Positions 7,035 to 49,542 of a stretch of DNA of 64,000 nucleotides are shown here, one piece after another (the first letter of the stretch is position 1; every line of letters begins with the position of its first letter). Below the pieces are notes generated by a model. It was not told where the DNA came from and did not search any database. It saw only the letters and a list, made by a program, of their open reading frames with translations. Source of the stretch: a plasmid. A program made the position numbers and the translations under genes. Where the stretch lies: the sequence record CP109674.1. One strand, 5' to 3'.

Positions 7035-8146
<1,112 letters not shown>

Positions 8147-8207
8147 GTAAAAGTCCTCATGAGCATGGGGAGTGCGGACGAATTCCTGGACCTTCAGGGG
8201 TTAATTT

Positions 8208-9376
8208 ATGCATTCATACGAGGACCGGATCCGGGCCGTCGAACTCTATTACCGGTACGGAAAGAAAGCCTCCGTTGTCGTCATGGAGCTGGGATATCCT
8301 TCCACAAAACAGCTGGGCCGTTGGGTTCGGATTTATGAAGAGAAGGGCGATTTACCCAGGGAATTAAAGCCAAGAGAACGCTATTCACGGACACAGAAAA
8401 TTGCTGCTGTTGAGCATTATCTTACTCACGGTGGTTGCCTGTCGTACACTCGCCGAGCCATCGGCTACCCCAGTAACGAAATTCTAAAGCGCTGGATTGA
8501 AGAGTTTTACCCAAATGCGCGTCCCCTGGTCATTCGCTCAGGCACAAACAAATGCTTCAGCCCGGAAGAGAGGTCTCAGGCCGTCCGGGAGCTCTGTAAC
8601 CGACGTGGAACCGCGCGTAAAGTTGCACAAAGCATAGGCGTCAGCGTCCCGGTCCTGTACAAATGGAAGAAAGACCTTATCAGTGACGAGGCTTATCAAT
8701 CCATGCGCAAACGAAAGGCAGCCCCTCAAGATAAAAATCAGGATGCTTTACTCGGTGAAATCCAGCGACTCAGGCAGCAGGTTCATCAGCTGCAGCTCGA
8801 ACGTGACATACTGATAAAGGCGAATGAACTGATAAAAAAAGATCTGGGCATCAGCTTTCTGACACTGAAAAACAGGGAGAAAACCCTGATAGTTGATGCC
8901 CTTAAGAAAAAGTACCCCGTTGCTGAGTTGCTAAGCGTTCTGCAACTTGCCCGCAGCTGTTATTTTTACCACAAAGCCAGCAAACGTCTGTGCGATAAGT
9001 ATGCGGAAATACGCGTGATCATGGCCGATATCTTTGAGGAGAATTACCGCTGTTACGGCTACCGGCGCCTTCACGCGATGCTTCGCGGTAACAACAGGGT
9101 TATTTCTGAAAAGGTTGTCCGCAGACTGATGGCAGAAGAGCAGCTCGTTGTTAAGCGCACCAGGCGACGACGATACAACTCTTACTGTGGCGAAATCGGC
9201 CCGGCACCGGAAAATTTACTCGCCCGGGATTTTAGTTCCTGCAGGCCAAATGAGAAGTGGCTGACCGATATTACGGAGTTCCAGCTTCCTGCTGGAAAAG
9301 TCTATCTGTCGCCGGTTATCGACTGCTTTGATGGCCAGGTTGTAAGCTGGTCGATAGGAACACGCCCGGACGCGAC
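8208..9376 (+). pseudogene. IS3-family fused OrfAB transposase, interrupted by insertion of another IS3-family element
   Basis: 396-aa ORF with two HTH regions and a leucine zipper. It enters the DDE domain (…EKWLTDITEF) and then runs into the IR of the inserted element at 9377. After that element (10606 onward) the reading frame hits a stop within about 10 codons. Confidence 0.65.
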
Positions 9377-12739: not shown

Positions 12740-13340
12740 CGTTAGCTCTGTGTCGTTGCACGATGTCAGCGACGGTATTCTTGCTGATACCGAGCTCGCG
12801 TGCGATCCAGCGATAGCTGCGTCCCTCGGCCCTCATCGCAACCACCTTAGGCAAAAGTCGGTCTGATTTTGGTCGCACTCCGGCCTGACGACCAAGCCTC
12901 TTACCACGTGCCTTCGCAACAGCAAGGCCTGACTTGACCCGCTCGCTGATGAGATCCCGCTCAAACTCCGCAATGCCGGAAAGAAACGTCGCCAGCATTC
13001 GTCCATACGGCGACGAAAGATCGAACGCCATTCCATTCATGGCTATCACGGAAACCTTCCAGTTCTCCAGTTCACGTAGCGTATTGAGCAGATCGAGCGT
13101 CGAGCGCCCCCACCGGGAAAGCTCAGTGACCAGGATTGCATCAATTTGTCTGGACTGGGCAAGCGCCAGGACTTTCTTTCGCTCGGCCCGGTCGAGTTTA
13201 GTTCCTGAACCTGTTTCCTTAAATATTCCCACCACGTCGTAGCCGGCACGGCCGGCGAAGGCTCGCAGATCAAATTCCTGGCGTTCACAAGACTGATCCG
13301 CTGTTGAAACCCGGCAGTAAATGGCGGCACGATGTCCCAA
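12735..13340 (-). CDS. tnpR: Serine recombinase/resolvase TnpR of the Tn5403-like transposon
   Basis: 201-aa ORF with an N-terminal catalytic Ser motif (AIYCRVSTADQ) and a C-terminal HTH. It is divergent from tnpA. Confidence 0.8.
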   Translation of the reverse strand: MGHRAAIYCRVSTADQSCERQEFDLRAFAGRAGYDVVGIFKETGSGTKLDRAERKKVLALAQSRQIDAILVTELSRWGRSTLDLLNTLRELENWKVSVIAMNGMAFDLSSPYGRMLATFLSGIAEFERDLISERVKSGLAVAKARGKRLGRQAGVRPKSDRLLPKVVAMRAEGRSYRWIARELGISKNTVADIVQRHRANA

Positions 13341-21592: not shown

Positions 21593-21960
21593 GCACGTCA
21601 ACCATCGAGGCGCTGGCCAGCGCCTGGGCAAGGATTGCCGAGGAAGCGGAATTCCCCGCTGACTACGAGGGGACTGCCACACCACAAGCGCATCGGGCTA
21701 GCGAAGCTATTCAGGAGCAGATTCGGGAGCGCATCGTCGCCACCAACGACATGCGGCTGTTCAGCCTGCTGCACCTGCTGGGTCAGGCGTCGCTGCGCAT
21801 GGAGCAAGCGCTGTGGCCGGAGGATTACGAGCGGATGACGCGCGAGGTTGAGGAAGCCCTGCGGCAAGCCACCGACGCCAACGCCAGATCGTACACCCAC
21901 GAAGAAGTGATGCAGGCGATGCAGGAACGCATCGACCGGGCGCGAGACAAGCCATGTTGA
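21589..21960 (+). CDS. Hypothetical acidic alpha-helical protein (123 aa)
   Basis: Overlaps the previous gene by 4 nt and tnpR by 7 nt, which suggests an operon. Confidence 0.45.
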   Translation: MSTSTIEALASAWARIAEEAEFPADYEGTATPQAHRASEAIQEQIRERIVATNDMRLFSLLHLLGQASLRMEQALWPEDYERMTREVEEALRQATDANARSYTHEEVMQAMQERIDRARDKPC

Positions 21961-22511
21961 TTGGCTATGCGCGCGTCTCGACGCAGGATCAGAACCTGGA
22001 GCTGCAACGCGAAGCCTTGAGCAAGGCCGGATGTAAAAAGGTCTTCGAGGACAAGGTGAGTGGCACGCGGGCAGACCGGCCTGGCTTGGCCAAGACGCTC
22101 GAAATGCTGCGCGAAGGCGATACTTTGGTCGTCTGGAAGCTCGACCGGCTGGGCCGGTCGGTCAAGCAACTGGTCGATCTGGTCGGCGATCTGCACAAGC
22201 ACGGTGTCCAGTTCAGGAGCCTCACCGACTCCATCGACACCGGCACACCATCCGGGCGGTTCTTCTTCCACGTCATGGCGAGCCTTGCCGAAATGGAGCG
22301 CGAGCTGACCGTCGAGCGCACCCGCGCCGGGCTGGAAGTCGCCAAGCAGCTCGGCCGCAAAGGCGGCCGCAAGCCGAAGATGACCGACAGCAAGATCGAG
22401 TCGGCCAAGAAGCTGCTGGCCAGCGGGGTGCCGCCCAAGGACGTGGCCAAGAACCTCGGCGTGTCCATTCCGACGCTGTACCGCTGGGTGCCAGCCTCCA
22501 CGCACGCTTAG
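21954..22511 (+). CDS. tnpR: Serine resolvase TnpR (last gene of the passenger operon; stop inside the IR)
   Basis: 185-aa ORF with catalytic Ser motif (IGYARVSTQDQ) and a C-terminal HTH (IPTLYRW). It is adjacent to the inner 17 bp of the IR. Confidence 0.8.
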   Translation: MLIGYARVSTQDQNLELQREALSKAGCKKVFEDKVSGTRADRPGLAKTLEMLREGDTLVVWKLDRLGRSVKQLVDLVGDLHKHGVQFRSLTDSIDTGTPSGRFFFHVMASLAEMERELTVERTRAGLEVAKQLGRKGGRKPKMTDSKIESAKKLLASGVPPKDVAKNLGVSIPTLYRWVPASTHA

Positions 22512-26024: not shown

Positions 26025-28413
<2,389 letters not shown>

Positions 28414-28434
28414 TAACGTATTCAGGGAGATACT

Positions 28435-28850
28435 ATGGAACGGATTGAACATCACGTCTGTTTCGGCGGCAGCCAGGAAGTCTGGCGTCACCACTCTGCG
28501 GTGACCGGCACGCCGATGACTTTTTCCGTGTTTCTGCCGCCGCAGGCAAAAACAGAGAAATGTCCTGTGCTGTACTGGCTTTCCGGGCTGACCTGCAACG
28601 AGCAGAATTTTATCACCAAAGCCGGGGCACAGCGTTACGCAGCGGAACACGGCCTGGTGATTGTCGCGCCGGATACCAGTCCGCGCGGCAGTCAGGTGGC
28701 GGATGATAAAGAGTACGATCTCGGCCAGGGTGCCGGGTTTTATGTCAATGCCACACAGGAGCCGTGGAAAGCGCATTATCAGATGTATGATTATATTCTG
28801 AATGAGCTGCACACCCTGGTAAGCGGGCATTTCGGCACATCGGAAAAACG
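28435..28850 (+). pseudogene. frmB: S-formylglutathione hydrolase (esterase D/FrmB family), 3'-truncated by IS26
   Basis: N-terminal 138 aa (…FSVFLPPQA… [14 protein letters not shown]…) match esterase D. The ORF runs into the IS26 IR. Confidence 0.7.
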
Positions 28851-29670
28851 GGCACTGTTGCAAAGTTAGCGATGAGGCAGCCTTTTGTCTTATTCAAAGG
28901 CCTTACATTTCAAAAACTCTGCTTACCAGGCGCATTTCGCCCAGGGGATCACCATAATAAAATGCTGAGGCCTGGCCTTTGCGTAGTGCACGCATCACCT
29001 CAATACCTTTGATGGTGGCGTAAGCCGTCTTCATGGATTTAAATCCCAGCGTGGCGCCGATTATCCGTTTCAGTTTGCCATGATCGCATTCAATCACGTT
29101 GTTCCGGTACTTAATCTGTCGGTGTTCAACGTCAGACGGGCACCGGCCTTCGCGTTTGAGCAGAGCAAGCGCGCGACCATAGGCGGGCGCTTTATCCGTG
29201 TTGATGAATCGCGGGATCTGCCACTTCTTCACGTTGTTGAGGATTTTACCCAGAAACCGGTATGCAGCTTTGCTGTTACGACGGGAGGAGAGATAAAAAT
29301 CGACAGTGCGGCCCCGGCTGTCGACGGCCCGGTACAGATACGCCCAGCGGCCATTGACCTTCACGTAGGTTTCATCCATGTGCCACGGGCAAAGATCGGA
29401 AGGGTTACGCCAGTACCAGCGCAGCCGTTTTTCCATTTCAGGCGCATAACGCTGAACCCAGCGGTAAATCGTGGAGTGATCGACATTCACTCCGCGTTCA
29501 GCCAGCATCTCCTGCAGCTCACGGTAACTGATGCCGTATTTGCAGTACCAGCGTACGGCCCACAGAATGATGTCACGCTGAAAATGCCGGCCTTTGAATG
29601 GGTTCATGTGCAGCTCCATCAGCAAAAGGGGATGATAAGTTTATCACCACCGACTATTTGCAACAGTGCC
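28851..29670 (-). mobile_element. tnp26: IS26 copy 3; tnp26 CDS 28903-29607
   Basis: IRs and an identical Tnp26. Confidence 0.95.
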
Positions 29671-30034
29671 CTTCATCCGGGGTCAGCACCACCGGCAAGC
29701 GCCGCGACGGCCGAGGTCTTCCGATCTCCTGAAGCCAGGGCAGATCCGTGCACAGCACCTTGCCGTAGAAGAACAGCAAGGCCGCCAATGCCTGACGATG
29801 CGTGGAGACCGAAACCTTGCGCTCGTTCGCCAGCCAGGACAGAAATGCCTCGACTTCGCTGCTGCCCAAGGTTGCCGGGTGACGCACACCGTGGAAACGG
29901 ATGAAGGCACGAACCCAGTTGACATAAGCCTGTTCGGTTGGTAAGCTGTAATGCAAGTAGCGTATGCGCTCACGCAACTGGTCCAGAACCTTGACCGAAC
30001 GCAGCGGTGGTAACGGCGCAGTGGCGGTTTTCAT
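29671..30034 (-). pseudogene. intI1: Class 1 integron integrase intI1, truncated by IS26 (N-terminal ~121 aa remain)
   Basis: N-terminus [38 protein letters not shown]…. The ORF reads into the IS26 end. Confidence 0.9.
29919..29947 (+). promoter_or_regulatory. Pc cassette promoter, -35 TTGACA / 17 bp / -10 TAAGCT preceded by TGG (PcH2-like with TGN extended -10)
   Basis: Hexamers read directly within the intI1 coding region. The other two integrons here have TGGACA at -35. Confidence 0.7.
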
Positions 30035-30210
30035 GGCTTGTTATGACTGTTTTTTTGTACAGTCTATGCCTCGGGCATCCAAGCAGCAAGCGCGTTACGC
30101 CGTGGGTCGATGTTTGATGTTATGGAGCAGCAACGATGTTACGCAGCAACGATGTTACGCAGCAGGGCAGTCGCCCTAAAACAAAGTTAGGCATCACAAA
30201 GTACAGCATC
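30035..30210 (+). other. attI1 recombination site (integron 1), containing a 16-bp tandem duplication (30132-30163)
   Basis: Colinear with the attI1 regions at 36645-36796 and 50710-50752, except that AACGATGTTACGCAGC is tandemly duplicated. Confidence 0.7.
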
Positions 30211-30765
30211 GTGACCAACAGCAACGATTCCGTCACACTGCGCCTCATGACTGAGCATGACCTTGCGATGCTCTATGAGTGGCTAAATCGATCTCATATC
30301 GTCGAGTGGTGGGGCGGAGAAGAAGCACGCCCGACACTTGCTGACGTACAGGAACAGTACTTGCCAAGCGTTTTAGCGCAAGAGTCCGTCACTCCATACA
30401 TTGCAATGCTGAATGGAGAGCCGATTGGGTATGCCCAGTCGTACGTTGCTCTTGGAAGCGGGGACGGATGGTGGGAAGAAGAAACCGATCCAGGAGTACG
30501 CGGAATAGACCAGTTACTGGCGAATGCATCACAACTGGGCAAAGGCTTGGGAACCAAGCTGGTTCGAGCTCTGGTTGAGTTGCTGTTCAATGATCCCGAG
30601 GTCACCAAGATCCAAACGGACCCGTCGCCGAGCAACTTGCGAGCGATCCGATGCTACGAGAAAGCGGGGTTTGAGAGGCAAGGTACCGTAACCACCCCAG
30701 ATGGTCCAGCCGTGTACATGGTTCAAACACGCCAGGCATTCGAGCGAACACGCAGTGATGCCTAA
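30211..30765 (+). CDS. aac(6')-Ib: Aminoglycoside 6'-N-acetyltransferase AAC(6')-Ib (Leu at the L/S specificity position; W and D at the -cr positions, so not -cr)
   Basis: GTG start ([17 protein letters not shown]…) as at 37636 in copy 2. Motifs …[25 protein letters not shown]… and …[10 protein letters not shown]…. Confidence 0.9.
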
Positions 30766-30840
30766 CCCTTCCATCGAGGGGGACGTCCAAGGGCTGGCGC
30801 CCTTGGCCGCCCCTCATGTCAAACGTTAGGCGTCATGCAT
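30766..30840 (+). repeat. attC (59-be) of the aac(6')-Ib cassette
   Basis: Imperfect palindrome GCCTAACCCTTCCATCGAGGGGGACGTCCAAGGGCTGGCGCCCTTGGCCGCCCCTCATGTCAAACGTTAGGC. Confidence 0.8.
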
Positions 30841-30992
30841 GAACCACACCGTCCCCGCAGAGGTATCCGCTCAGGTGCGGATAGTCGTCGACGTCATAAA
30901 GTCACATTTGGAGCCTGTGCTTCTTGCCATTTGTCAATGGCCATTAATTTTGACCCACCTTTGGCCAATAAAATTGACCCACCCTTGCACGT

Positions 30993-31733
30993 TTAACCCG
31001 TTGTTTTCTGTTTCAGCCGATAGCTCTCTCCTCCCAGCATAAAGATGTGTGAGTGATGGATGATTCGGTCGATGATCGGTACTGCCACGTTGTCGTCGTG
31101 GAAGAACTCGCCCCAGCAGGTGAAGTCCTTGTTGGTGGTCAGGATGATAGACCGGTATTCGTACAGACTGTTGATCAGCTGGAACAGGTTGTAGCGGGCC
31201 TGCCGGGTCATGGGCAGGTAGCCCAGCTCATCGATGATCAAGAGGTCGACCTTGCTCAGCTGGCTGATTTTCTTTTTCAGCTCGCCCTTCATTTCTGCCA
31301 GCTCCAGTTCTTCCACCAACTCCAGCGCGGTGCGAAACAATACCCGGTATCCGGCCTCGACGGCCTTGTGGCCAATCCCGATGGCCAGGTGGGTCTTGCC
31401 CACGCCTGGCGGGCCGATGAAGATCACGTTGTTGCGCTCGTCGATGAACCGGAAGTCCAGCAGGCTGTTGATCTGGCGCTTGCTGATGGTGGTCTGGTGG
31501 CGATAGTCAAAGCCCTCCAGATGCTTGTGCGCAGGAAAGCCTGCCGTCTTGTAATTGCGCTGTACCCGGTTGGCCTGACGCTGCTGGAGTTCGTATTCAG
31601 CCAGTCGCTGTGCAAAGCTCAGGAACGACATTTCACTGGCTTCGGCCTCGGCCAGTAACTGGGCGAGCTCTGCGGCGATGGAGGTCATGCGCAGGCTACG
31701 GTACTGGGCGGCAGTCTGTTCAAGCATGCCCAT
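30993..31733 (-). CDS. istB: IS21-family helper ATPase IstB
   Basis: AAA+ Walker A and B motifs (…IFIGPPGVGKTHLAIGIG… LLIIDELGY). Confidence 0.8.
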   Translation of the reverse strand: MGMLEQTAAQYRSLRMTSIAAELAQLLAEAEASEMSFLSFAQRLAEYELQQRQANRVQRNYKTAGFPAHKHLEGFDYRHQTTISKRQINSLLDFRFIDERNNVIFIGPPGVGKTHLAIGIGHKAVEAGYRVLFRTALELVEELELAEMKGELKKKISQLSKVDLLIIDELGYLPMTRQARYNLFQLINSLYEYRSIILTTNKDFTCWGEFFHDDNVAVPIIDRIIHHSHIFMLGGESYRLKQKTTG

Positions 31734-33243
31734 GGGTCACCTCCTGGCCAGTCGAGCGGCCAAGCTGTCGGTATGCACTCAAGTCCAGCTCTGACGGAGC
31801 CTCTGGCACGGGCTCAGGCAGACGCTCACGCCGGCTGGCCAGCTGGGTGGCCACCAGATACGCTTCGATCTGTCGGGCGGTCAGGCCCGGCTTCTGGCTC
31901 AGGTTCAACAGCATGTCCCGTTCAACAGGTGCGTGCTTACTCAGCAGGTTGCGTACTGCGAACAGTTGATCCTTATAGACCTTGGGCAAGGATCTCCGCA
32001 ACTGATCACACAAGGCCAGGCTGAGTGCCTCGTCGCCCACCAGTACTTGAATGTCCTGCTCCAGCTGCTGCCGGCGCTGGGCATGGTCACGGTAGTGGTG
32101 GGTGTTTTTGATAATCTGACCTTTGCCGCCCGCCAACGCATGCTGGGCAATCACTTCGCCAGTTTGTAGATCAATCACATGCATCTGGCTGTCGTCTTCC
32201 AGCACACCGACACGGCTTTGCTGCCAGGCCATGGGCACAGAGTACTTGTTGGCCTTCCAGGAGATCAGTCCGGTCTTATCCGCCTTGCGGGTCTCACGGG
32301 CTTCAGATGTGACGCAAGAGGGTGACAGGTAGGGCTTGAGCAGAGCCTGTTCGTCACGTTCAAAACGCAGCTGAGGTGCCTCACCTGTGGTGCCGTGTGC
32401 CCGCACATTGGCGACCTTGTCCAGCCAGTGATGCACATGCTCGCGCAGGTGCTGCTCATCACGGAAGGTCTCGCCGTAAAAGCAGTCCTGCTTGACGTAT
32501 TTGACGCCCGCTTCAACCTTGCCCTTGCTCTCGGGGTCATAGCCTTCGCAAGCATGGATACGAAAGCCGGCTGTGGTGGCGTACTGATGAAAACGCTCGT
32601 TGAGGGTCAGCTCCCGGTATTTCTCCTCAATCACCACCAGCTTGGTCTGGTCGTACACCAGCTCTTCAGGCATGCCGCCAAAGTAGCGCAGCGCTTCGTC
32701 ATGCAGCTGGATGAACTGCCGGGTATCCAGCGGCTTAAACGACAGGCCCACATACATCAGCCGCGAGTACGCCAGCACAAACACAACAAAGTGCACCACT
32801 GTTTCCACGCCACCAATCAGCACGTTACGCAGCTCGCCCGGGTCAACCTGGCACTGCACACCCGGCACCTCATCAACCACCGGCTCGTAATATCGGTGCT
32901 GACCGGTTGCAACCTCTTCCTTCAGCGCGCTGACGTAACGACGAATACTGCGCTCGGAGGTCGGCAGCTCACCCAGTTTCTCCTTGAGCTTGCGGGCAAT
33001 CTTGACTGCACTGAGCCCGGGAAAGCTGGCCAGCAAGCTGATCAGGTATCCCCGGTAGGTGTCGAGCTGTTTGCTGCGGACAGGGTTATCCAGCTTGCGG
33101 GCAGTGGTTGTTTCATCCTGACGCAGATACTTGCGCACGCTGTTGCGCGAGATGCCCAGCTCCCGGCTGATGGCCCGAATGGAAAGTCCTTTGCCATCGT
33201 CATGTAATGATTTTATTTTGTGTATCACGTTCCACCTCATCAT
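31720..33243 (-). CDS. istA: IS21-family transposase IstA
   Basis: 507-aa ORF with N-terminal HTH motifs and a DDE core. It overlaps istB. Confidence 0.8.
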   Translation of the reverse strand: MMRWNVIHKIKSLHDDGKGLSIRAISRELGISRNSVRKYLRQDETTTARKLDNPVRSKQLDTYRGYLISLLASFPGLSAVKIARKLKEKLGELPTSERSIRRYVSALKEEVATGQHRYYEPVVDEVPGVQCQVDPGELRNVLIGGVETVVHFVVFVLAYSRLMYVGLSFKPLDTRQFIQLHDEALRYFGGMPEELVYDQTKLVVIEEKYRELTLNERFHQYATTAGFRIHACEGYDPESKGKVEAGVKYVKQDCFYGETFRDEQHLREHVHHWLDKVANVRAHGTTGEAPQLRFERDEQALLKPYLSPSCVTSEARETRKADKTGLISWKANKYSVPMAWQQSRVGVLEDDSQMHVIDLQTGEVIAQHALAGGKGQIIKNTHHYRDHAQRRQQLEQDIQVLVGDEALSLALCDQLRRSLPKVYKDQLFAVRNLLSKHAPVERDMLLNLSQKPGLTARQIEAYLVATQLASRRERLPEPVPEAPSELDLSAYRQLGRSTGQEVTHGHA

Positions 33244-33335
33244 CAGAACGGTTCCCGGCCTGCCAAAAGGCTGGGAACCCTATCTGCATTTCTGGCCGGT
33301 TGGCCACCTTGGGGTGGGTCAAAATTAATGGCCAG

Positions 33336-34155
33336 GGCACTGTTGCAAAGTTAGCGATGAGGCAGCCTTTTGTCTTATTCAAAGGCCTTACATTTCAAAA
33401 ACTCTGCTTACCAGGCGCATTTCGCCCAGGGGATCACCATAATAAAATGCTGAGGCCTGGCCTTTGCGTAGTGCACGCATCACCTCAATACCTTTGATGG
33501 TGGCGTAAGCCGTCTTCATGGATTTAAATCCCAGCGTGGCGCCGATTATCCGTTTCAGTTTGCCATGATCGCATTCAATCACGTTGTTCCGGTACTTAAT
33601 CTGTCGGTGTTCAACGTCAGACGGGCACCGGCCTTCGCGTTTGAGCAGAGCAAGCGCGCGACCATAGGCGGGCGCTTTATCCGTGTTGATGAATCGCGGG
33701 ATCTGCCACTTCTTCACGTTGTTGAGGATTTTACCCAGAAACCGGTATGCAGCTTTGCTGTTACGACGGGAGGAGAGATAAAAATCGACAGTGCGGCCCC
33801 GGCTGTCGACGGCCCGGTACAGATACGCCCAGCGGCCATTGACCTTCACGTAGGTTTCATCCATGTGCCACGGGCAAAGATCGGAAGGGTTACGCCAGTA
33901 CCAGCGCAGCCGTTTTTCCATTTCAGGCGCATAACGCTGAACCCAGCGGTAAATCGTGGAGTGATCGACATTCACTCCGCGTTCAGCCAGCATCTCCTGC
34001 AGCTCACGGTAACTGATGCCGTATTTGCAGTACCAGCGTACGGCCCACAGAATGATGTCACGCTGAAAATGCCGGCCTTTGAATGGGTTCATGTGCAGCT
34101 CCATCAGCAAAAGGGGATGATAAGTTTATCACCACCGACTATTTGCAACAGTGCC
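33336..34155 (-). mobile_element. tnp26: IS26 copy 4; tnp26 CDS 33388-34092
   Basis: IRs and an identical Tnp26. It abuts the IS21-family element. Confidence 0.95.
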
Positions 34156-34300
34156 GCAACAGCCATCACCAACACAACATCTTGTGCGCCGGCAGCTGAT
34201 CGCGGCCACCATATCTAGTGTTTCAATTTTGGATTGCGCAATCCAAAATAGGCGTAAAAATAACGATGGTTTTCTTTACATGATTGGATTTGCTGGCCAC

Positions 34301-34393
34301 TGTCATTTTCAGAAGACGACTGCACCAGACAACGCGGTTTGAAGGCTGTTGTGCAGTCGTCTATTGAACGAACAGTATCAGGAGTCCGCTGCA
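34301..34393 (+). repeat. Tn402-family IRt end: 25-bp IRt (34301-34325) plus two internal 19-bp TniA-type repeats (34351-34369, 34375-34393)
   Basis: TGTCATTTTCAGAAGACGACTGCAC matches the class 1 integron/Tn402 IRt. The inner repeats are GTGCAGTCGTCTATTGAAC and, on the opposite strand, GTGCAGCGGACTCCTGATA. Confidence 0.8.
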
Positions 34394-34599
34394 CGAATGA
34401 TGACCTCAAGCCGGTTCTGGTCGCGCTGGCGACCGATCAGCCCCTGGATGTGCGATACCGCGACCACGATCTTTCCGGCGATTGGGCGGGCTACCGCGAA
34501 TGCTACATCAAGCCCGACCTGCTGCTGATCTACCGCAAGTCCGACGCCGACACCCTGCGACTGGCGCGGCTTGGCTCCCATAGCGAGCTGTTCGGCTGA
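34394..34599 (+). pseudogene. YafQ/RelE-family toxin fragment (C-terminal ~68 aa), N-terminus replaced by IRt-end sequence
   Basis: …RDHDLSGDWAGYRECYIKPDLLLIYRKSDADTLRLARLGSHSELFG resembles the YafQ C-terminus (…KDHPLQGSWKGYRDAHVEPDWILIY… RTGTHAALFG). Confidence 0.55.
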
Positions 34600-34727
34600 T
34601 GCCAGTCGCCTTGTCCGCCAAACGATCATTAGTCGGCCATGCCGGACACTGTCCAGCAAAGTTATTGCACAACGGGTTGTCGGACATTAAGATAGGCGGA
34701 CGGAATGACGGACAAGAGAGGCGGCAA

Positions 34728-35294
34728 ATGGCACTGATCGGCTATGCGCGGGTATCGACGGCGGAACAGGACACCGCCTTGCAGACGGATGCGCTACGCA
34801 AGGCAGGCTGCGAGCGCGTTTTCGAGGACACGGCTTCCGGGGCCAAGGCCGACCGCCCCGGCTTGGCTGATGCGCTGGCCTACCTGCGCGACGGCGACGT
34901 GCTGGCCGTCTGGCGGCTGGATCGGCTCGGGCGCTCTATGCCGCACCTAATCGAAACGATAGGCGCGCTGGAAGCGCGAGGCGTCGGCTTCCGTTCTCTG
35001 ACGGAAGCCATCGACACCACCACGCCAGGCGGGCGGCTCATCTTCCACGTGTTCGGCGCGCTGGGCCAGTTCGAGCGCGACTTGATCCGCGAGCGCACCA
35101 AGGCCGGGTTGACTGCCGCCGCCGCTCGTGGGAGGAAGGGCGGGCGAAAGCCGGTTGTCACCGCCGACAAGTTGCAGCGAGCGCGGGAGCACATCGCCAA
35201 CGGGCTTAATGTCCGAGAGGCCGCTACACGGCTCAAGGTGAGCAAGACGGCCCTGTACACCGCGCTGCAATCCACCAGTGCAGCCGACTCCTGA
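34728..35294 (+). CDS. tniR: Serine resolvase (TniR/TniC-like)
   Basis: 188-aa ORF beginning MALIGYARVSTAEQD… with a C-terminal HTH. Its stop lies inside a 19-bp repeat of the right-hand IRt end. Confidence 0.65.
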   Translation: MALIGYARVSTAEQDTALQTDALRKAGCERVFEDTASGAKADRPGLADALAYLRDGDVLAVWRLDRLGRSMPHLIETIGALEARGVGFRSLTEAIDTTTPGGRLIFHVFGALGQFERDLIRERTKAGLTAAAARGRKGGRKPVVTADKLQRAREHIANGLNVREAATRLKVSKTALYTALQSTSAADS

Positions 35295-35300
35295 TATTCC

Positions 35301-35325
35301 GTGCAGTCGTCTTCTGAAAATGACA
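35301..35325 (-). repeat. Second IRt copy, inverted, with the inner repeat deleted
   Basis: GTGCAGTCGTCTTCTGAAAATGACA is the reverse complement of IRt. Relative to the left IRt end, the ~51 bp carrying the t2 repeat is missing. Confidence 0.8.
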
Positions 35326-35439
35326 CTCACGCGCAGGTAGATGCGTGCGACTTTCATGCGGGCCTCCTGGTCATTTTGGGTATAGGGAAAATGACCATTG
35401 TTTCACGCCTAGCCAAAAAGGGAAGGTTCCCGGTTCAAA

Positions 35440-35488
35440 TGTCGTTTTCAGAAGACGGCTGCACTGAACGTCAGAAGCCGACTGCACT
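35440..35488 (+). repeat. Class 1 integron IRi (25 bp) plus second 19-bp repeat
   Basis: TGTCGTTTTCAGAAGACGGCTGCAC TGAACGTCAGAAGCCGACTGCAC, followed by the 3' end of intI1. Confidence 0.9.
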
Positions 35489-35641
35489 ATAGCAGCGGAG
35501 GGGTTGGATCCATCAGGCAACGACGGGCTGCTGCCGGCCATCAGCGGACGCAGGGAGGACTTTCCGCAACCGGCCGTTCGATGCGGCACCGATGGCCTTC
35601 GCGCAGGGGTAGTGAATCCGCCAGGATTGACTTGCGCTGCC

Positions 35642-36644
35642 CTACCTCTCACTAGTGAGGGGCGGCAGCGCATCAAGCGGTGAGCGCACTCCGGCACCGC
35701 CAACTTTCAGCACATGCGTGTAAATCATCGTCGTAGAGACGTCGGAATGGCCGAGCAGATCCTGCACGGTTCGAATGTCGTAACCGCTGCGGAGCAAGGC
35801 CGTCGCGAACGAGTGGCGGAGGGTGTGCGGTGTGGCGGGCTTCGTGATGCCTGCTTGTTCTACGGCACGTTTGAAGGCGCGCTGAAAGGTCTGGTCATAC
35901 ATGTGATGGCGACGCACGACACCGCTCCGTGGATCGGTCGAATGCGTGTGCTGCGCAAAAACCCAGAACCACGGCCAGGAATGCCCGGCGCGCGGATACT
36001 TCCGCTCAAGGGCGTCGGGAAGCGCAACGCCGCTGCGGCCCTCGGCCTGGTCCTTCAGCCACCATGCCCGTGCACGCGACAGCTGCTCGCGCAGGCTGGG
36101 TGCCAAGCTCTCGGGTAACATCAAGGCCCGATCCTTGGAGCCCTTGCCCTCCCGCACGATGATCGTGCCGTGGATCCTTGACCCGCAGTTGCAAACCCTC
36201 ACTGATCCGCATGCCCGTTCCATACAGAAGCTGGGCGAACAAACGATGCTCGCCTTCCAGAAAACCGAGGATGCGAACCACTTCATCCGGGGTCAGCACC
36301 ACCGGCAAGCGCCGCGACGGCCGAGGTCTTCCGATCTCCTGAAGCCAGGGCAGATCCGTGCACAGCACCTTGCCGTAGAAGAACAGCAAGGCCGCCAATG
36401 CCTGACGATGCGTGGAGACCGAAACCTTGCGCTCGTTCGCCAGCCAGGACAGAAATGCCTCGACTTCGCTGCTGCCCAAGGTTGCCGGGTGACGCACACC
36501 GTGGAAACGGATGAAGGCACGAACCCAGTGGACATAAGCCTGTTCGGTTGGTAAGCTGTAATGCAAGTAGCGTATGCGCTCACGCAACTGGTCCAGAACC
36601 TTGACCGAACGCAGCGGTGGTAACGGCGCAGTGGCGGTTTTCAT
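35642..36644 (-). pseudogene. intI1: intI1 with an 11-bp internal deletion (frameshift after …LQLRVKD)
   Basis: Two overlapping ORFs (36006-36644 and 35642-36286). Alignment with the intact copy at 49696-50709 shows ATCGAAATCCA missing near 36172 (1003 nt against 1014 nt). Confidence 0.85.
36529..36557 (+). promoter_or_regulatory. Pc promoter, -35 TGGACA / 17 bp / TGG-TAAGCT (PcW with TGN-10)
   Basis: Hexamers read directly. The same arrangement occurs at 50594-50622 in integron 3. Confidence 0.7.
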
Positions 36645-37537
<893 letters not shown>

Positions 37538-37635
37538 ATTTCTAACAAGGCGGTGAAACTCATTCCGCTTCGCTTCACTGGACGCCGCAAGCGGCGCCGT
37601 TTACCTTCGCGTTAGGCATCACAAAGTACAGCATC

Positions 37636-38190
37636 GTGACCAACAGCACCGATTCCGTCACACTGCGCCTCATGACTGAGCATGACCTTGCGATGCTCTA
37701 TGAGTGGCTAAATCGATCTCATATCGTCGAGTGGTGGGGCGGAGAAGAAGCACGCCCGACACTTGCTGACGTACAGGAACAGTACTTGCCAAGCGTTTTA
37801 GCGCAAGAGTCCGTCACTCCATACATTGCAATGCTGAATGGAGAGCCGATTGGGTATGCCCAGTCGTACGTTGCTCTTGGAAGCGGGGACGGATGGTGGG
37901 AAGAAGAAACCGATCCAGGAGTACGCGGAATAGACCAGTCACTGGCGAATGCATCACAACTGGGCAAAGGCTTGGGAACCAAGCTGGTTCGAGCTCTGGT
38001 TGAGTTGCTGTTCAATGATCCCGAGGTCACCAAGATCCAAACGGACCCGTCGCCGAGCAACTTGCGAGCGATCCGATGCTACGAGAAAGCGGGGTTTGAG
38101 AGGCAAGGTACCGTAACCACCCCAGATGGTCCAGCCGTGTACATGGTTCAAACACGCCAGGCATTCGAGCGAACACGCAGTGATGCCTAA
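37636..38190 (+). CDS. aac(6')-Ib': AAC(6')-Ib' (Ser at the L/S position, the gentamicin-type allele) gene cassette
   Basis: Identical to the copy at 30211 except …[11 protein letters not shown]… (S instead of L) and the N-terminal TNSTD. Confidence 0.85.
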
Positions 38191-38284
38191 CCCTTCCATC
38201 GAGGGGGACGTCCAAGGGCTGGCGCCCTTGGCCGCCCCTCATGTCAAACGTTAGACGGCAAAGTCACAGACCGCGGGATCTCTT

Positions 38285-38917
38285 ATGACCAACTACTTTG
38301 ATAGCCCCTTCAAAGGCAAGCTGCTTTCTGAGCAAGTGAAGAACCCCAATATCAAAGTTGGGCGGTACAGCTATTACTCTGGCTACTATCATGGGCACTC
38401 ATTCGATGACTGCGCACGGTATCTGTTTCCGGACCGTGATGACGTTGATAAGTTGATCATCGGTAGTTTCTGCTCTATCGGGAGTGGGGCTTCCTTTATC
38501 ATGGCTGGCAATCAGGGGCATCGGTACGACTGGGCATCATCTTTCCCGTTCTTTTATATGCAGGAAGAACCTGCATTCTCAAGCGCACTCGATGCCTTCC
38601 AAAAAGCAGGTAATACTGTCATTGGCAATGACGTTTGGATCGGCTCTGAGGCAATGGTCATGCCCGGAATCAAGATCGGGCACGGTGCGGTGATAGGCAG
38701 CCGCTCGTTGGTGACAAAAGATGTGGAGCCTTACGCTATCGTTGGCGGCAATCCCGCTAAGAAGATTAAGAAACGCTTCACCGATGAGGAAATTTCATTG
38801 CTTCTGGAGATGGAGTGGTGGAATTGGTCACTGGAGAAGATCAAAGCGGCAATGCCCATGCTGTGCTCGTCTAATATTGTTGGCCTGCACAAGTATTGGC
38901 TCGAGTTTGCCGTCTAA
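38285..38917 (+). CDS. catB3: Chloramphenicol acetyltransferase CatB3 gene cassette
   Basis: 210-aa xenobiotic acetyltransferase with hexapeptide repeats, beginning [46 protein letters not shown]…. Confidence 0.9.
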
Positions 38918-38932
38918 TTCAGGCGATATATC

Positions 38933-39280
38933 ATGAAAGGCTGGCTTTTTCTTGTTATCGCAATAGTTGGCGAAGTAATCGCAACATCCGCATTAAAATC
39001 TAGCGAGGGCTTTACTAAGCTTGCCCCTTCCGCCGTTGTCATAATCGGTTATGGCATCGCATTTTATTTTCTTTCTCTGGTTCTGAAATCCATCCCTGTC
39101 GGTGTTGCTTATGCAGTCTGGTCGGGACTCGGCGTCGTCATAATTACAGCCATTGCCTGGTTGCTTCATGGGCAAAAGCTTGATGCGTGGGGCTTTGTAG
39201 GTATGGGGCTCATAATTGCTGCCTTTTTGCTCGCCCGATCCCCATCGTGGAAGTCGCTGCGGAGGCCGACGCCATGGTGA
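38933..39280 (+). CDS. qacEdelta1: QacEdelta1 SMR efflux protein (3'-CS)
   Basis: 115-aa ORF beginning [30 protein letters not shown]…. It overlaps the sul1 start. Confidence 0.9.
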
Positions 39281-40113
39281 CGGTGTTCGGCATTCTGAAT
39301 CTCACCGAGGACTCCTTCTTCGATGAGAGCCGGCGGCTAGACCCCGCCGGCGCTGTCACCGCGGCGATCGAAATGCTGCGAGTCGGATCAGACGTCGTGG
39401 ATGTCGGACCGGCCGCCAGCCATCCGGACGCGAGGCCTGTATCGCCGGCCGATGAGATCAGACGTATTGCGCCGCTCTTAGACGCCCTGTCCGATCAGAT
39501 GCACCGTGTTTCAATCGACAGCTTCCAACCGGAAACCCAGCGCTATGCGCTCAAGCGCGGCGTGGGCTACCTGAACGATATCCAAGGATTTCCTGACCCT
39601 GCGCTCTATCCCGATATTGCTGAGGCGGACTGCAGGCTGGTGGTTATGCACTCAGCGCAGCGGGATGGCATCGCCACCCGCACCGGTCACCTTCGACCCG
39701 AAGACGCGCTCGACGAGATTGTGCGGTTCTTCGAGGCGCGGGTTTCCGCCTTGCGACGGAGCGGGGTCGCTGCCGACCGGCTCATCCTCGATCCGGGGAT
39801 GGGATTTTTCTTGAGCCCCGCACCGGAAACATCGCTGCACGTGCTGTCGAACCTTCAAAAGCTGAAGTCGGCGTTGGGGCTTCCGCTATTGGTCTCGGTG
39901 TCGCGGAAATCCTTCTTGGGCGCCACCGTTGGCCTTCCTGTAAAGGATCTGGGTCCAGCGAGCCTTGCGGCGGAACTTCACGCGATCGGCAATGGCGCTG
40001 ACTACGTCCGCACCCACGCGCCTGGAGATCTGCGAAGCGCAATCACCTTCTCGGAAACCCTCGCGAAATTTCGCAGTCGCGACGCCAGAGACCGAGGGTT
40101 AGATCATGCCTAG
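39274..40113 (+). CDS. sul1: Dihydropteroate synthase Sul1
   Basis: 279-aa ORF beginning [28 protein letters not shown]…. A second identical copy lies at 44984-45823. Confidence 0.95.
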
Positions 40114-42280
40114 CATTCACCTTCCGGCCGCCCGCTAAATATCTCCTTTTGGGTTGTTAATAAAACATCCAATAAGTTGACTGTGCGTGAAAAAGAAAGT
40201 TTTGTGTGATGGCGTTGAAGATCGCACCGTTAAGCTCTTATGTGGGATGGTGCAGAGCTCGACGACTACCGATAAAACGCAACCGCCGCAAACAGACAAG
40301 AAAAAGCCCCAACTGATAACAGTTGGGGCTTCAGTATTGTGATTGGTGGAGCAATAGCACCCTGAACCCAAAACCTTCTCGCTCAACCGGTAGTGGCTGA
40401 TAACAACTCGTGAGGGCTATTGCGGGTTAAGCATTTAGCGATGTCTAGGGCCAGACTGGACGTCTGAACGCAAGCCGCTGATACTGTACATAACCACAGT
40501 ATCAGCGGAGGATACCCATGTCGCTGGCAAGGAACGCCACGGCGAGTCAATCGCCCACTCAAACAAACGGTTACGAACGCCACCAACCCGACCAGACGCT
40601 GCTCTACCAGCTGGTTGAGCAGCACTACCCAGCCTTCAAAGCCTCACTCGAAGCCCAAGGTCAACACCTGCCTCGCTACATCCAACAAGAATTCAACGAC
40701 CTCCTCCAATGTGGCCGTCTGGAGTATGGTTTCATGCGGGTTCGCTGCGAGGATTGTCATCACGAGCGTCTGGTCGCCTTCAGCTGTAAACGACGCGGCT
40801 TTTGCCCTAGCTGCGGTGCCCGCCGGATGGCCGAGAGTGCGGCGCTGCTGATAGACGAAGTCTTCCCCAAGGAGCCCATTCGCCAGTGGGTGCTCAGCTT
40901 TCCTTTCCAGCTACGCTTTTTGCTGGCTCGCCATCCCCAGCTGATGGGCCAGGTCTTGAGTATCGTCTATCGTACACTCTCAACTCATCTGATCAAAAAA
41001 GCCGGTTACACCAAAGCCTCTGCACAAACTGGCTCAGTGACTCTTATCCAACGCTTTGGCTCCGCGCTAAATCTCAATGTCCACTACCACATGCTGTTTC
41101 TCGATGGTGTCTATGCCGAAGATGACTATGGCAAGCAACGCTTCCATCGTGTCAAGGCACCCACTTACGATGAGCTGAATACGCTCGCTCACACCCTCAG
41201 CCATCGCATCGCTCGCTGCATGGAAAAGCGTGGGATTTTGGAGCGTGATGCCGAGAATACGTGGTTGACACTGGAAGAGGGCGAAGACGATACGCTGACT
41301 CAATTACATGGTGCTTCGGTTACGTATCGCATTGCCGTCGGCCCCCAGCAAGGGCGCAAAGTCTTCACCCTGCAAACCTTGCCAGGGCGTGAGGATAAAG
41401 CCGACTCAAGCAGTCGAGTAGCCAACCATGCTGGTTTCTCGCTACACGCCGGTGTGATGGCCGAAGCGCATCAGCGGGATAAGCTTGAGCGCTTGTGTCG
41501 CTACATTAGTCGGCCAGCGGTTTCAGGCATTAACCGCCAATGGGCAGGTGCGTTACGAGCTCAAAACTCCGTACCGCAATGGCACCACCCATGTGATCTT
41601 CGAGCCGCTGGACTTCATCGCCAAACTCGCTGCGTTGGTACCTAAGCCGCGAGTCAACCTCACACGCTTCCACGGCGTCTTTGCACCGAACAGCAAACAC
41701 CGAGTTCAAGTAACACCCGCCAAGCGGGGCAAGAAGCCCGACAAATCGGAAGGTCTCGATACTAACTGGCGTGACAAGAGTCCTGCAGAGCGCCACCGCG
41801 CCATGACCTGGATGCAACGCCTCAAGCGAGTCTTCAATATTGATATTGAAGTCTGCGAACACTGCGGCGGTCACGTCAAAGTGATTGCCAGCATCGAAGA
41901 TCCGAAGGTCATTGAGCAGATTCTCAAGCATCTGAAACAGAAAACAGCCAAGGCGAATGCCGCCAAGCAGCGTGAGCTGCCACCAGAACGAGCGCCGCCA
42001 CTGACTCCCAGCCTGTTCGATCCATCACAGAGTCGTCTCTTTGACTGACGACCCCAAATCCAACACTGCTCAACACTGCCAACTTTTAAACGGGGCGGTG
42101 GGGCAGTTTGTATCTCTCGAGCTATCAGGCTAGAGATTTTACCGCCAAATCGAACCTTATTAGAGCGGTTTAGGCTGGACCGGCAGTTAAAATTGGGGCT
42201 TGAGCGGTAAACGAGTGAGGGAATTTCAGGTAAGATACTTCGGATGAGGAGCAAAAAGGTGGTTTATACTTCCTATACCC
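40114..42280 (+). mobile_element. ISCR1 copy 1 (boundaries approximate at the left; oriIS end at 42280)
   Basis: Contains orf513 homology and ends with the characteristic oriIS sequence …GGTTTATACTTCCTATACCC, after which unique DNA (sapA-qnrB2) begins. Confidence 0.8.
40518..42048 (+). pseudogene. orf513: ISCR1 transposase orf513 with a frameshift (two ORFs: 40518-41645 and 41485-42048)
   Basis: N-terminus MSLARNATASQSPTQTNGYERHQP…. The start-to-stop span is 1531 nt against 1542 nt expected for 513 codons plus stop, i.e. an 11-nt deficit. The frame switches near 41500-41540. The copy at 46228-47758 is identical. Confidence 0.7.
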
Positions 42281-49493: not shown

Positions 49494-49542
49494 TGTCGTT
49501 TTCAGAAGACGGCTGCACTGAACGTCAGAAGCCGACTGCACT
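49494..49542 (+). repeat. IRi plus second repeat of class 1 integron 3
   Basis: TGTCGTTTTCAGAAGACGGCTGCAC TGAACGTCAGAAGCCGACTGCAC. Confidence 0.9.

Follow-up and report, generated by a model that had tools for sequence, protein, structure and literature searches.

A transposase-less 1,025-bp relative of ISPa17 beside a blaIMP-8 integron, best read as a recombinant formed at a res site

Introduction

ISPa17, which has been attributed to Haines et al. 2005 (PMC6614342), is described as an atypical insertion sequence (IS) with Tn402-like inverted repeats (IRs), a toxin-antitoxin pair and "transposases" (PMC6409357, PMC9952335, PMC10311859). The element or "ISPa17-based transposition units" feature in several reports (PMC6409357, PMC3260659, PMC9952335, PMC10311859, PMC6614342), and composites bracketed by a single 5-bp duplication have been published (PMC10311859, PMC9952335, PMC5460862). 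In the literature searched, comparisons of the ends of these elements cover only the 25-mers. Here we analyse a related segment in a 64,000-nucleotide stretch of plasmid DNA from sequence record CP109674.1 (hereafter the window). The 1,025 bp bounded by two arms, at 34301-34325 and 35301-35325, comprise a truncated yafQ toxin gene, a putative res region and a serine resolvase of 188 aa, and lie next to a class 1 integron carrying blaIMP-8. We conclude, with a probability of roughly 0.8, that the segment is a transposase-less member of the Tn402/Tn5053 family, belonging to a group typified by ISPa17 and formed as a recombinant at a res site.

Results

The element joins the left part of one known sequence to the right part of another. 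Window positions 34157-34632 are 100% identical to pRAS1b, IncU flank included, and positions 34619-35439 are 100% identical to pKJK5 and pNOR-2000, a match that takes in the right part of ISPa17 and a parA spacer up to the integron IRi. pRAS1b carries a 1,032-bp mini element, present also in pAUSMDU8141-1 and pFAHZU40-KPC, which equals the window at element positions 1-332 and then shows 112 differences. In pKJK5 the 2,145-bp ISPa17 lies within parA with the repeat CTCACG on either side, in agreement with its published description (PMC3260659). Since base 34618 is of the pRAS1b type and base 34633 of the ISPa17 type, the switch falls within 34619-34632, a 14-bp interval at the GATC centre of a putative resolvase site I. 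This site (34612-34639) is a 28-bp imperfect palindrome, TGTCCGCCAAAC-GATC-ATTAGTCGGCCA, and further TGTCCG/CGGACA half-sites continue from it to the resolvase start codon. When 15 family members were aligned upstream of the resolvase, conservation started exactly at TGTCCG (34612), with yafQ or vapB on the left.

All four combinations of left and right halves around the 28-bp site exist. The yafQ side is joined to the ISPa17-type resolvase in the window (1,025 bp) and to a second resolvase allele in pRAS1b (1,032 bp). The vapBC side is joined to the ISPa17 resolvase in ISPa17 itself (2,145 bp) and to a pRAS1b-type resolvase in a 2,152-bp element (locus L072 of our family survey), which is the reciprocal product. 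Loci L072 and L068 have the right-hand flank TGACT in common and differ in their left halves. Because the parental forms are not homologous left of the site, the hybrid is best explained by resolvase-mediated crossover at site I, and on these alignments the element is best read as a resolvase-site recombinant of the mini element and ISPa17.

A search for the same unit in other plasmids, proposed by the first-pass annotation of the window, shows that it is widespread in resistance plasmids. Many plasmids carry all 1,025 bp at 100% identity (883 public records with a match, 346 with at least 80% of the element); among them are pFBAOT6, pEC-IMP, small Aeromonas IncU plasmids and Rms149. Exact copies have been publicly available for two decades. 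Rms149 (locus L099) carries both ISPa17, at 38367-40511 with the duplication CGCGG, and the 1,025-bp form, at 7239-8263 beside an integron, and so appears to hold one putative parent and its recombinant product in one plasmid.

The two arms (34301-34325, TGTCATTTTCAGAAGACGACTGCAC, and 35301-35325) are exact reverse complements over 25 of 25 positions, just as the first-pass annotation had described them, and both have the 25-mer of the Tn402 IRt in R751; shuffling the window 100 times produced no match to this 25-mer, even with up to 3 mismatches allowed. Both had accordingly been taken for IRt ends. In the Tn402/Tn5053 family the 25-bp terminal repeats are followed by asymmetric arrays, in which the t-end has four transposase-binding repeats, including an inverted one, and the i-end has two direct repeats. 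Each end was read inwards from its tip, and copies of the 17-nt core of the terminal repeat were located along it. The IRt end of Tn402 has repeats at 9, 51 (inverted) and 78 from the tip, the left end of ISPa17 (IRL) has them at 9, 51 (inverted), 78 and 121, and the left end in the window has them at 9, 51 (inverted) and 78 before it breaks off at about nt 97, where yafQ sequence starts. The extra TniA-type repeats previously noticed at this end are thus a t-end layout whose fourth repeat has been lost. At the right end the repeats lie at 9 and 32, just as they do in the IRi end of Tn402 and integrons, in the right end of pRAS1b and in an end from a Xanthomonas hortorum plasmid. What had been read as a deletion of about 51 bp that removed a right-end repeat is instead the standard i-end layout. 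Judged by these arrays of ~19-bp repeats, which are spaced as in the Tn402 of R751, the element has one truncated t-type and one i-type end, as in any Tn402-family transposon, and only the outermost 25 nt coincide.

Beyond the 25-mer the left end shows only loose similarity to the tni (IRt) end of Tn402 and integrons, and hence does not derive from an integron. Its subterminal sequence is restricted to the mini element at every locus examined. Among the plasmid matches listed, the best non-identical t-ends reach ~78%, with five further records between 80% and 95%. The i-type end, whose inner repeat (35278-35294) overlaps the resolvase stop codon, follows the resolvase equally in ISPa17 copies, in pRAS1b and in a Xanthomonas plasmid, with a different outside flank each time. 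Xanthomonas plasmids, X. hortorum pICMP7383.2 (locus L004) among them, carry several copies each of a vapBC-res-resolvase array with the same i-type end behind it (8689-8713 and 13122-13146 in L004); no matching t-end was found within 8 kb of these ends.

The content of the element agrees with its description as a toxin fragment and a tniR-like resolvase, both supported by open reading frames (ORFs) and by matches to YafQ_toxin and PF00239. The resolvase is identical to WP_003159185, the ISPa17 resolvase, an accession annotated in pPA033, pNOR-2000 and Rms149. It is 51% identical to TniC of Tn402 and, like tniC, its gene is read from t-end to i-end. It is also 95% identical to the resolvase of a dinJ-yafQ-res-resolvase module in pAER-3367, an ordinary plasmid module without IRs. 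At the level of sequence, then, the element retains an intact resolvase, a conserved half-site array upstream of it and recombinant junctions at the first site of that array. The toxin gene is a remnant. Its reading frame is open upstream into the transposon end (ORF 34339-34599) and matches positions 20-88 of the 88-position YafQ_toxin profile of Pfam. The remnant is 76% identical to the full 93-aa YafQ of pAER-3367, the alignment beginning at residue 8 and becoming close from residue 28, and it was also aligned with an intact 1,479-bp relative. About 27 N-terminal codons are missing, as is the dinJ antitoxin gene. The arrangement of a DinJ-YafQ type II system, an antitoxin gene followed by a full-length toxin gene, is thus absent from the element, while intact dinJ-yafQ pairs occur in the 1,479-bp relatives and in pAER-3367. 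A simple promoter scan of the 1,025 bp found nothing. Coordinates are collected in Table 1.

Table 1. Features at and around the 1,025-bp element, in window positions
Feature	Position	Strand	Remarks
IS26	33337-34156	-	ORF 33388-34110; terminal repeats GGCACTGTTGCAAA / TTTGCAACAGTGCC at 33337 and 34143-34156
IncU plasmid backbone fragment, region upstream of DR1/repA	34157-34300	.	Same sequence as in pAH6, pRAS1b and pFBAOT6 as far as the junction
t-type transposon end	34301-34397	+	25-nt IR 34301-34325; truncated before fourth repeat
TniA-type repeats in t-type end	34309-34325 (+), 34351-34367 (inverted), 34378-34394 (+)
yafQ toxin gene remnant	34398-34599	+	Last 66 codons kept
Putative res region	34612-34727	+	Run of TGTCCG/CGGACA half-sites before the resolvase gene
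Serine resolvase, 188 aa, TniR-like	34728-35294	+	PF00239 at 2.4e-47
i-type transposon end	35278-35325	-	25-nt IR 35301-35325 and second direct repeat 35278-35294
parA spacer	35326-35439	-	First 32 nt of IncP-1 epsilon parA resolvase gene and 82 bp of upstream region
IRi end of blaIMP-8 class 1 integron	35440-35487	+	IR 35440-35464; second repeat 35471-35487

Neither the element nor any other part of the 64-kb window encodes tniA, tniB or tniQ (tblastn). The lack of these genes makes the element non-autonomous and at most a derivative of the Tn402/Tn5053 family, which bears out the first-pass suggestion of a non-autonomous derivative. The element is probably immobile unless it borrows enzymes, and in this window, with its IncU flank severed by IS26 and 64 kb without tni genes, it is an inactive passenger. 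Two more serine resolvase genes lie in the window, at 21954-22490 (49% identical to Tn402 TniC) and 12771-13319 (33%); these are possible additional targets for res hunters.

To place the element among its relatives, one genome per species was scanned with the resolvase protein, which yielded 79 loci, and ends and flanks were detected by script. None of the ISPa17-group elements compared encodes TniA, TniB or TniQ, and a 178-aa ORF of ISPa17, elsewhere termed a transposase, has no family match in Pfam or NCBIfam. Identical 5-bp flanks nevertheless bracket 10 of the 28 complete elements, where ~0.03 would be expected by chance. They are found around ISPa17 of 2,145 bp (loci L024, L027, L028/L029 and L032, and Rms149 with CGCGG), around a 1,479-bp element (L065, L074 and L082), around a 1,472-bp relative (L038) and around one copy of the 1,032-bp mini element (L080, GCGCG), which lies ~60 bp upstream of a Tn3-family tnpA. 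These duplications in relatives argue that the ISPa17 group does transpose. The 1,479-bp element has a four-repeat t-end, intact dinJ and yafQ, res, resolvase and i-end; copies lie at 9129-10607 in L065, 1228-2706 in L074 and 8763-10241 in L082, one of them in a Pseudomonas nitroreducens chromosome. The same deletion junction (GCACGAA|TGATGAC) recurs in every copy of the mini element, while the copies occupy at least 10 different flank contexts, which points to a single origin of the mini element followed by its spread.

Relatives of the element can share a target duplication with an integron. In pFBAOT6 the duplication GTGGC brackets the IRt of an In4-type integron, the integron, its IRi, the 114-bp spacer and the mini element as far as its t-end, so that mini element and integron appear to have entered, or at least to occupy, a res target as one unit. 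One duplication likewise brackets ISPa17 and an integron in pPA033 (ATAAA) and at locus L026 (TTTAT). Three different spacers of 109-114 bp part an ISPa17-group i-end from an integron IRi. In the window it is the parA start with its upstream region, and in pRAS1b it is the beginning of a gene for a 282-aa serine recombinase, as carried by plasmids of the pAER-3367/pNOR-2000 type; in pPA033 it measures 112 bp and matched nothing else in the plasmid collection. In the two identified spacers (parA and the 282-aa recombinase) the i-ends of both elements face the res region, one from each side. A one-step deletion from a pAER-3367-like backbone was considered and rejected, as the spacer there is oppositely oriented relative to yafQ-resolvase. 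Integron IRi ends were also found back to back with the t-end of the mini element or ISPa17, 4-7 bp apart (L007 5969-6025; L079 9307-9363; L036 8425-8478), which suggests recurrent insertion right beside these ends.

On the right of the element the 114 bp that had been counted between its arm and the IRi of the blaIMP integron are confirmed, with the IRi at 35440-35464. The parA gene in this spacer begins at ATG 35357-35355 and reads MKVARIYLRV followed by 2 nt (AG) of a Ser codon, which places the right junction in codon 11. The spacer matches pKJK5, pNOR-2000, pFBAOT6 and Rms149 at 100% identity and the corresponding region of pEMT3, where parA is intact, at 89-90%, and appears to have been carried along from the ISPa17 insertion seen in pKJK5. 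Window positions 28157-41428 are 99.91% identical over 13.3 kb to pEC-IMP (NC_012555, 137934-151216), and the window belongs to an IncHI2 plasmid of the pEC-IMP type. Within this region the order is IS26, aacA4, ISCfr8, IS26, the IncU fragment with the mini element and the blaIMP-8/aacA4/catB3 integron with ISCR1. The intI1 gene of this integron (35642-36644) has an 11-bp deletion near 36172 relative to pEC-IMP that causes a frameshift and splits it into two overlapping ORFs; the integrase is probably inactive unless the deletion is an assembly error. A second IRi at 49494-49518, identical to the copy at 35440 and with a different left flank, marks another class 1 integron end.

On the left, IS26 interrupts the IncU-derived fragment 144 bp from the element, an arrangement shared with pEC-IMP. 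The last five bases of the fragment (GCCAC, 34296-34300) represent one copy of the duplication at the IncU target, and in the reconstructed empty site the junction lies 80 bp upstream of the start codon of the IncU resolvase. At the same backbone junction the IncU plasmid pKPC-1ac6 carries a complete Tn402-like transposon (tniA, tniB, tniQ) with the duplication GTGGC and with its IRi 85 bp from the resolvase start codon. With a right junction in parA and a left junction beside the IncU resolvase, a target of res hunters, the element was thus rightly placed in a res-hunter frame by the first-pass annotation. The perfect palindrome reported outside the left arm does exist, although not at 34217-34238 or at a distance of 60 bp: TTTTGGATTGCGCAATCCAAAA lies at 34227-34248 (24 bp, 34226-34249, with the flanking A/T), 51 nt from the IR. 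It is IncU backbone sequence: in the reconstructed empty site the insertion point is 47 bp away, and the IncU resolvase starts ~131 bp downstream of the palindrome. It may play a part in res; no other half-sites were found in the reconstructed IncU res region. A close relative of the 24-bp palindrome, TTTGGATTGCACAATCCAAA, lies between a SprT-like gene and mobC in pFBAOT6 (locus L019, 9605-9624) and hints at a shared regulator-binding site instead of, or besides, a res subsite. The palindrome is not named in the RA3 literature examined.

Discussion

Our results suggest a route by which the element arose and came to lie beside the blaIMP-8 integron. A dinJ-yafQ-res-resolvase element, the intact relatives of which measure 1,479 bp, would have lost the fourth repeat of its end together with dinJ and the 5' part of yafQ, giving rise to the 1,032-bp mini element, which would then have settled in an IncU plasmid. 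There it may have recombined at res site I with a copy of ISPa17 situated in an IncP-1 epsilon parA gene beside a class 1 integron, a second exchange within the integron being needed for resolution of the cointegrate. The product would carry the IncU flank, t-end and yafQ remnant on its left and the ISPa17 resolvase, i-end, parA/res spacer, IRi and integron on its right, which is the pFBAOT6/pAH6-type arrangement. IS26 would have brought this fragment into a pEC-IMP-type IncHI2 plasmid, severing the IncU flank at 34156. The architecture of the ends, the 5-bp duplications of relatives and the established biology of Tn402/Tn5053 together make it most likely that movement relies on TniABQ in trans. 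A resident Tn402/Tn5053 transposon would supply TniA, TniB and TniQ; these would attach to the repeats of the ends and direct insertion to resolvase-bound res sites, and the element's own resolvase and res would then resolve the cointegrate. Were the t-end of the element to pair with the IRt of a neighbouring integron, the element, the spacer and the tni-defective integron could move jointly.

Other origins for the hybrid are conceivable. Ordinary homologous recombination between the mini element and ISPa17, rather than resolvase acting at res, would profit from the 13 identical bases that the parents share at the junction and from ~85% identity to its right. However, homology is absent to the left of 34612, where yafQ meets vapB, so that at or left of the junction the parents share only 21 bases (34612-34632, one of them mismatched); moreover the centre of the conserved 28-bp palindrome falls inside the junction interval, and both reciprocal products exist, which together make this explanation unlikely. 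We give hardly any weight to the first-pass proposal that the tni (IRt) ends of two class 1 integrons recombined with one another. The proposal accounts for the identity of both terminal 25-mers with the IRt of Tn402 and integrons, but the alignments refute it: the left end is only loosely similar past the 25-mer, the right end is that of ISPa17 with the two-repeat i layout, and no tniA is present. The hybrid joins two ISPa17-group elements, with the crossover in the res site, and the integron tni module contributed neither end.

The remaining alternatives concern what the element is rather than how its halves met. It could be the wreck of a full Tn402-like transposon that lost tniABQ in place at the IncU site and was never a mobile unit, a view to which the complete transposon at exactly the same IncU junction of pKPC-1ac6, with its GTGGC duplication, and the lack of an own duplication around the window copy both lend colour. 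We consider it very unlikely, as the sequence past the IR differs from that of the pKPC-1ac6 transposon, and as the 1,032-/1,025-bp unit, with the same deletion junction, recurs in IncP-6 plasmids, Rms149, environmental genomes and metagenome-assembled genomes with differing flanks and in one case a perfect 5-bp duplication. It is more improbable still that the element is an autonomous IS moved by its own proteins, with the serine recombinase as transposase, the view that several publications take of ISPa17 and its "two putative transposases". In NCBIfam the resolvase does weakly match the IS607-type serine transposases, at E 1.3e-4 and with 21.6 bits where the cut-off is 110. Yet the ends bear Tn402 TniA-type repeat arrays and family members generate 5-bp duplications, which are a mark of TniA-type DDE transposition and not of transposition by serine recombinases. 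The 178-aa "transposase" ORF of ISPa17, itself without a Pfam or NCBIfam match, is missing from the 1,025-bp element, and the close relative of the resolvase in pAER-3367 (95% identical) serves a plain toxin-antitoxin-res-resolvase module without IRs.

Several observations weigh against a transposase-less element mobilised in trans and recombined at res. The flanks of the window copy, which the first-pass annotation had suggested might form a 5-bp direct duplication, read GCCAC (34296-34300) and CTCAC (35326-35330); on the recombinant origin preferred here they differ because they come from two different insertions. A duplication accompanies only 1 of the ~12 mini-element copies that have both flanks. 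A direct parent, with the same t-end sequence and intact dinJ-yafQ or tniABQ, was found neither in the plasmid search nor among the 79 genome loci. The res subsites were assigned by eye from half-site repeats, with a 37-bp alternative first site at 34612-34648. Both the mobilisation by TniABQ and the action of the resolvase at the proposed site I are argued from knowledge of the family. Finally, published accounts speak of ISPa17 "transposases" or of ISPa17-driven transposition (PMC6409357, PMC9952335, PMC10311859).

Whether the ISPa17 group at large is a broad and largely unnamed set of hitchhikers on Tn402/Tn5053 machinery, equipped only with toxin-antitoxin genes, res and resolvase and able to insert with the i-end towards res, to lend t-ends and to reshuffle halves at site I, we regard as evenly balanced. 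If true, the i-end of the group would meet a res site from the gene side and integrons would meet it from the other, giving the recurrent sandwich of i-end, ~110 bp and IRi; t-ends lent to tni-defective class 1 integrons would allow joint movement; and resolvase crossover at site I would swap element halves and hence neighbours, the window element being one product. Of relevance to resistance epidemiology is that many class 1 integrons of clinical origin (IMP, VIM and aac(6')-Ib-cr arrays) have this element or ISPa17 beside their integrase end. Such neighbours can offer an integron a res crossover point and another transposon end that it could use, and by either route an integron with defective tni could still change replicon. 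The junctions with the IncU flank and the parA spacer are lineage markers that trace the IncHI2 blaIMP-8 region to IncU and IncP-1 epsilon contexts. For annotation, an automatic "YafQ toxin" call here denotes a dead fragment, and a "recombinase" is not a plasmid gene but the resolvase that a passenger element of the Tn402 family carries. In the literature searched, which did not cover the original descriptions of Rms149, pRAS1, pAX22 and pFBAOT6, there was no published name for the 1,025-/1,032-bp form, nor a transposase-less reading, an assignment of t and i ends, the reciprocal site-I recombinants or the 1,479-bp dinJ-yafQ member; these may be published already.

Among described systems the closest is ISPa17 (2,145 bp; Rms149, pKJK5, pNOR-2000, pPA033), with which the element shares its right 707 bp (34619-35325), comprising part of res, the resolvase and the i-type end (IRR), as well as the parA spacer and the place beside an integron IRi seen in pKJK5; both lack tniABQ. 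Where ISPa17 has orf178-vapC-vapB the element has the yafQ remnant, its t-end is of another sequence and truncated to three repeats, and the left 40% is thus replaced, at a length of 1,025 bp as opposed to 2,145 bp. It therefore does not contain the complete ISPa17 unit of IRL, orf178, vapC, vapB, res, resolvase and IRR and is a recombinant derivative rather than a copy. With the 1,032-bp mini element (IncU pRAS1b; IncHI2, IncP-6 and other plasmids) it shares 34301-34632, that is the t-end, yafQ remnant, deletion junction and left half of site I, together with the IncU flank, whereas the mini element has another resolvase allele (WP_001173919, 191 aa) and 2 mismatches in its i-end IR.

The wider comparison is with Tn402/Tn5090 (R751) and the Tn5053 family, which have in common with the element the 25-nt IRs, the asymmetric repeat arrays, a resolvase read away from the t-end, 5-bp duplications (in relatives of the element) and insertion at res regions in an orientation that turns the i-end to the site bound by resolvase. 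The element differs in having no tniA, tniB or tniQ and no integron or mer cargo, in a resolvase only 51% identical to TniC and in a res region of ~116 bp where Tn402 has a 61-bp tniQ-tniC spacer. ISPa17-based units (Tn6394, Tn7486-7488, Tn7516/7517) and Tn6006 (Tn6007 and Tn6008) resemble the pFBAOT6 arrangement, in which a single 5-bp duplication brackets the mini element, spacer and In4-type integron; the window in contrast lacks the far end of such a composite and an integron IRt and has been rearranged by IS26 and ISCR1. A Tn402 delta(tniABQ) from Pseudomonas monteilii HB157 (bioRxiv 10.1101/2020.12.23.424275) has likewise kept both ends, res and resolvase and lost tniABQ, and its authors also propose mobilisation in trans, but it is a true Tn402 with an integron and IS6100, while the element here is of the ISPa17 lineage and without an integron. 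Miniature inverted-repeat transposable elements (MITEs), Tn3-derived inverted-repeat miniature elements (TIMEs) and integron mobilisation units (IMUs) have a short non-coding core between terminal repeats; the 1,025-bp element instead encodes an intact resolvase and a res region. Its kind is therefore already known from the res hunters of the Tn402 family, from ISPa17 and from composites with integrons, and parts of the wider picture are published. The element leaves the understanding of how the Tn402 family works unchanged and serves mainly the annotation of these regions and the tracing of integron lineages.

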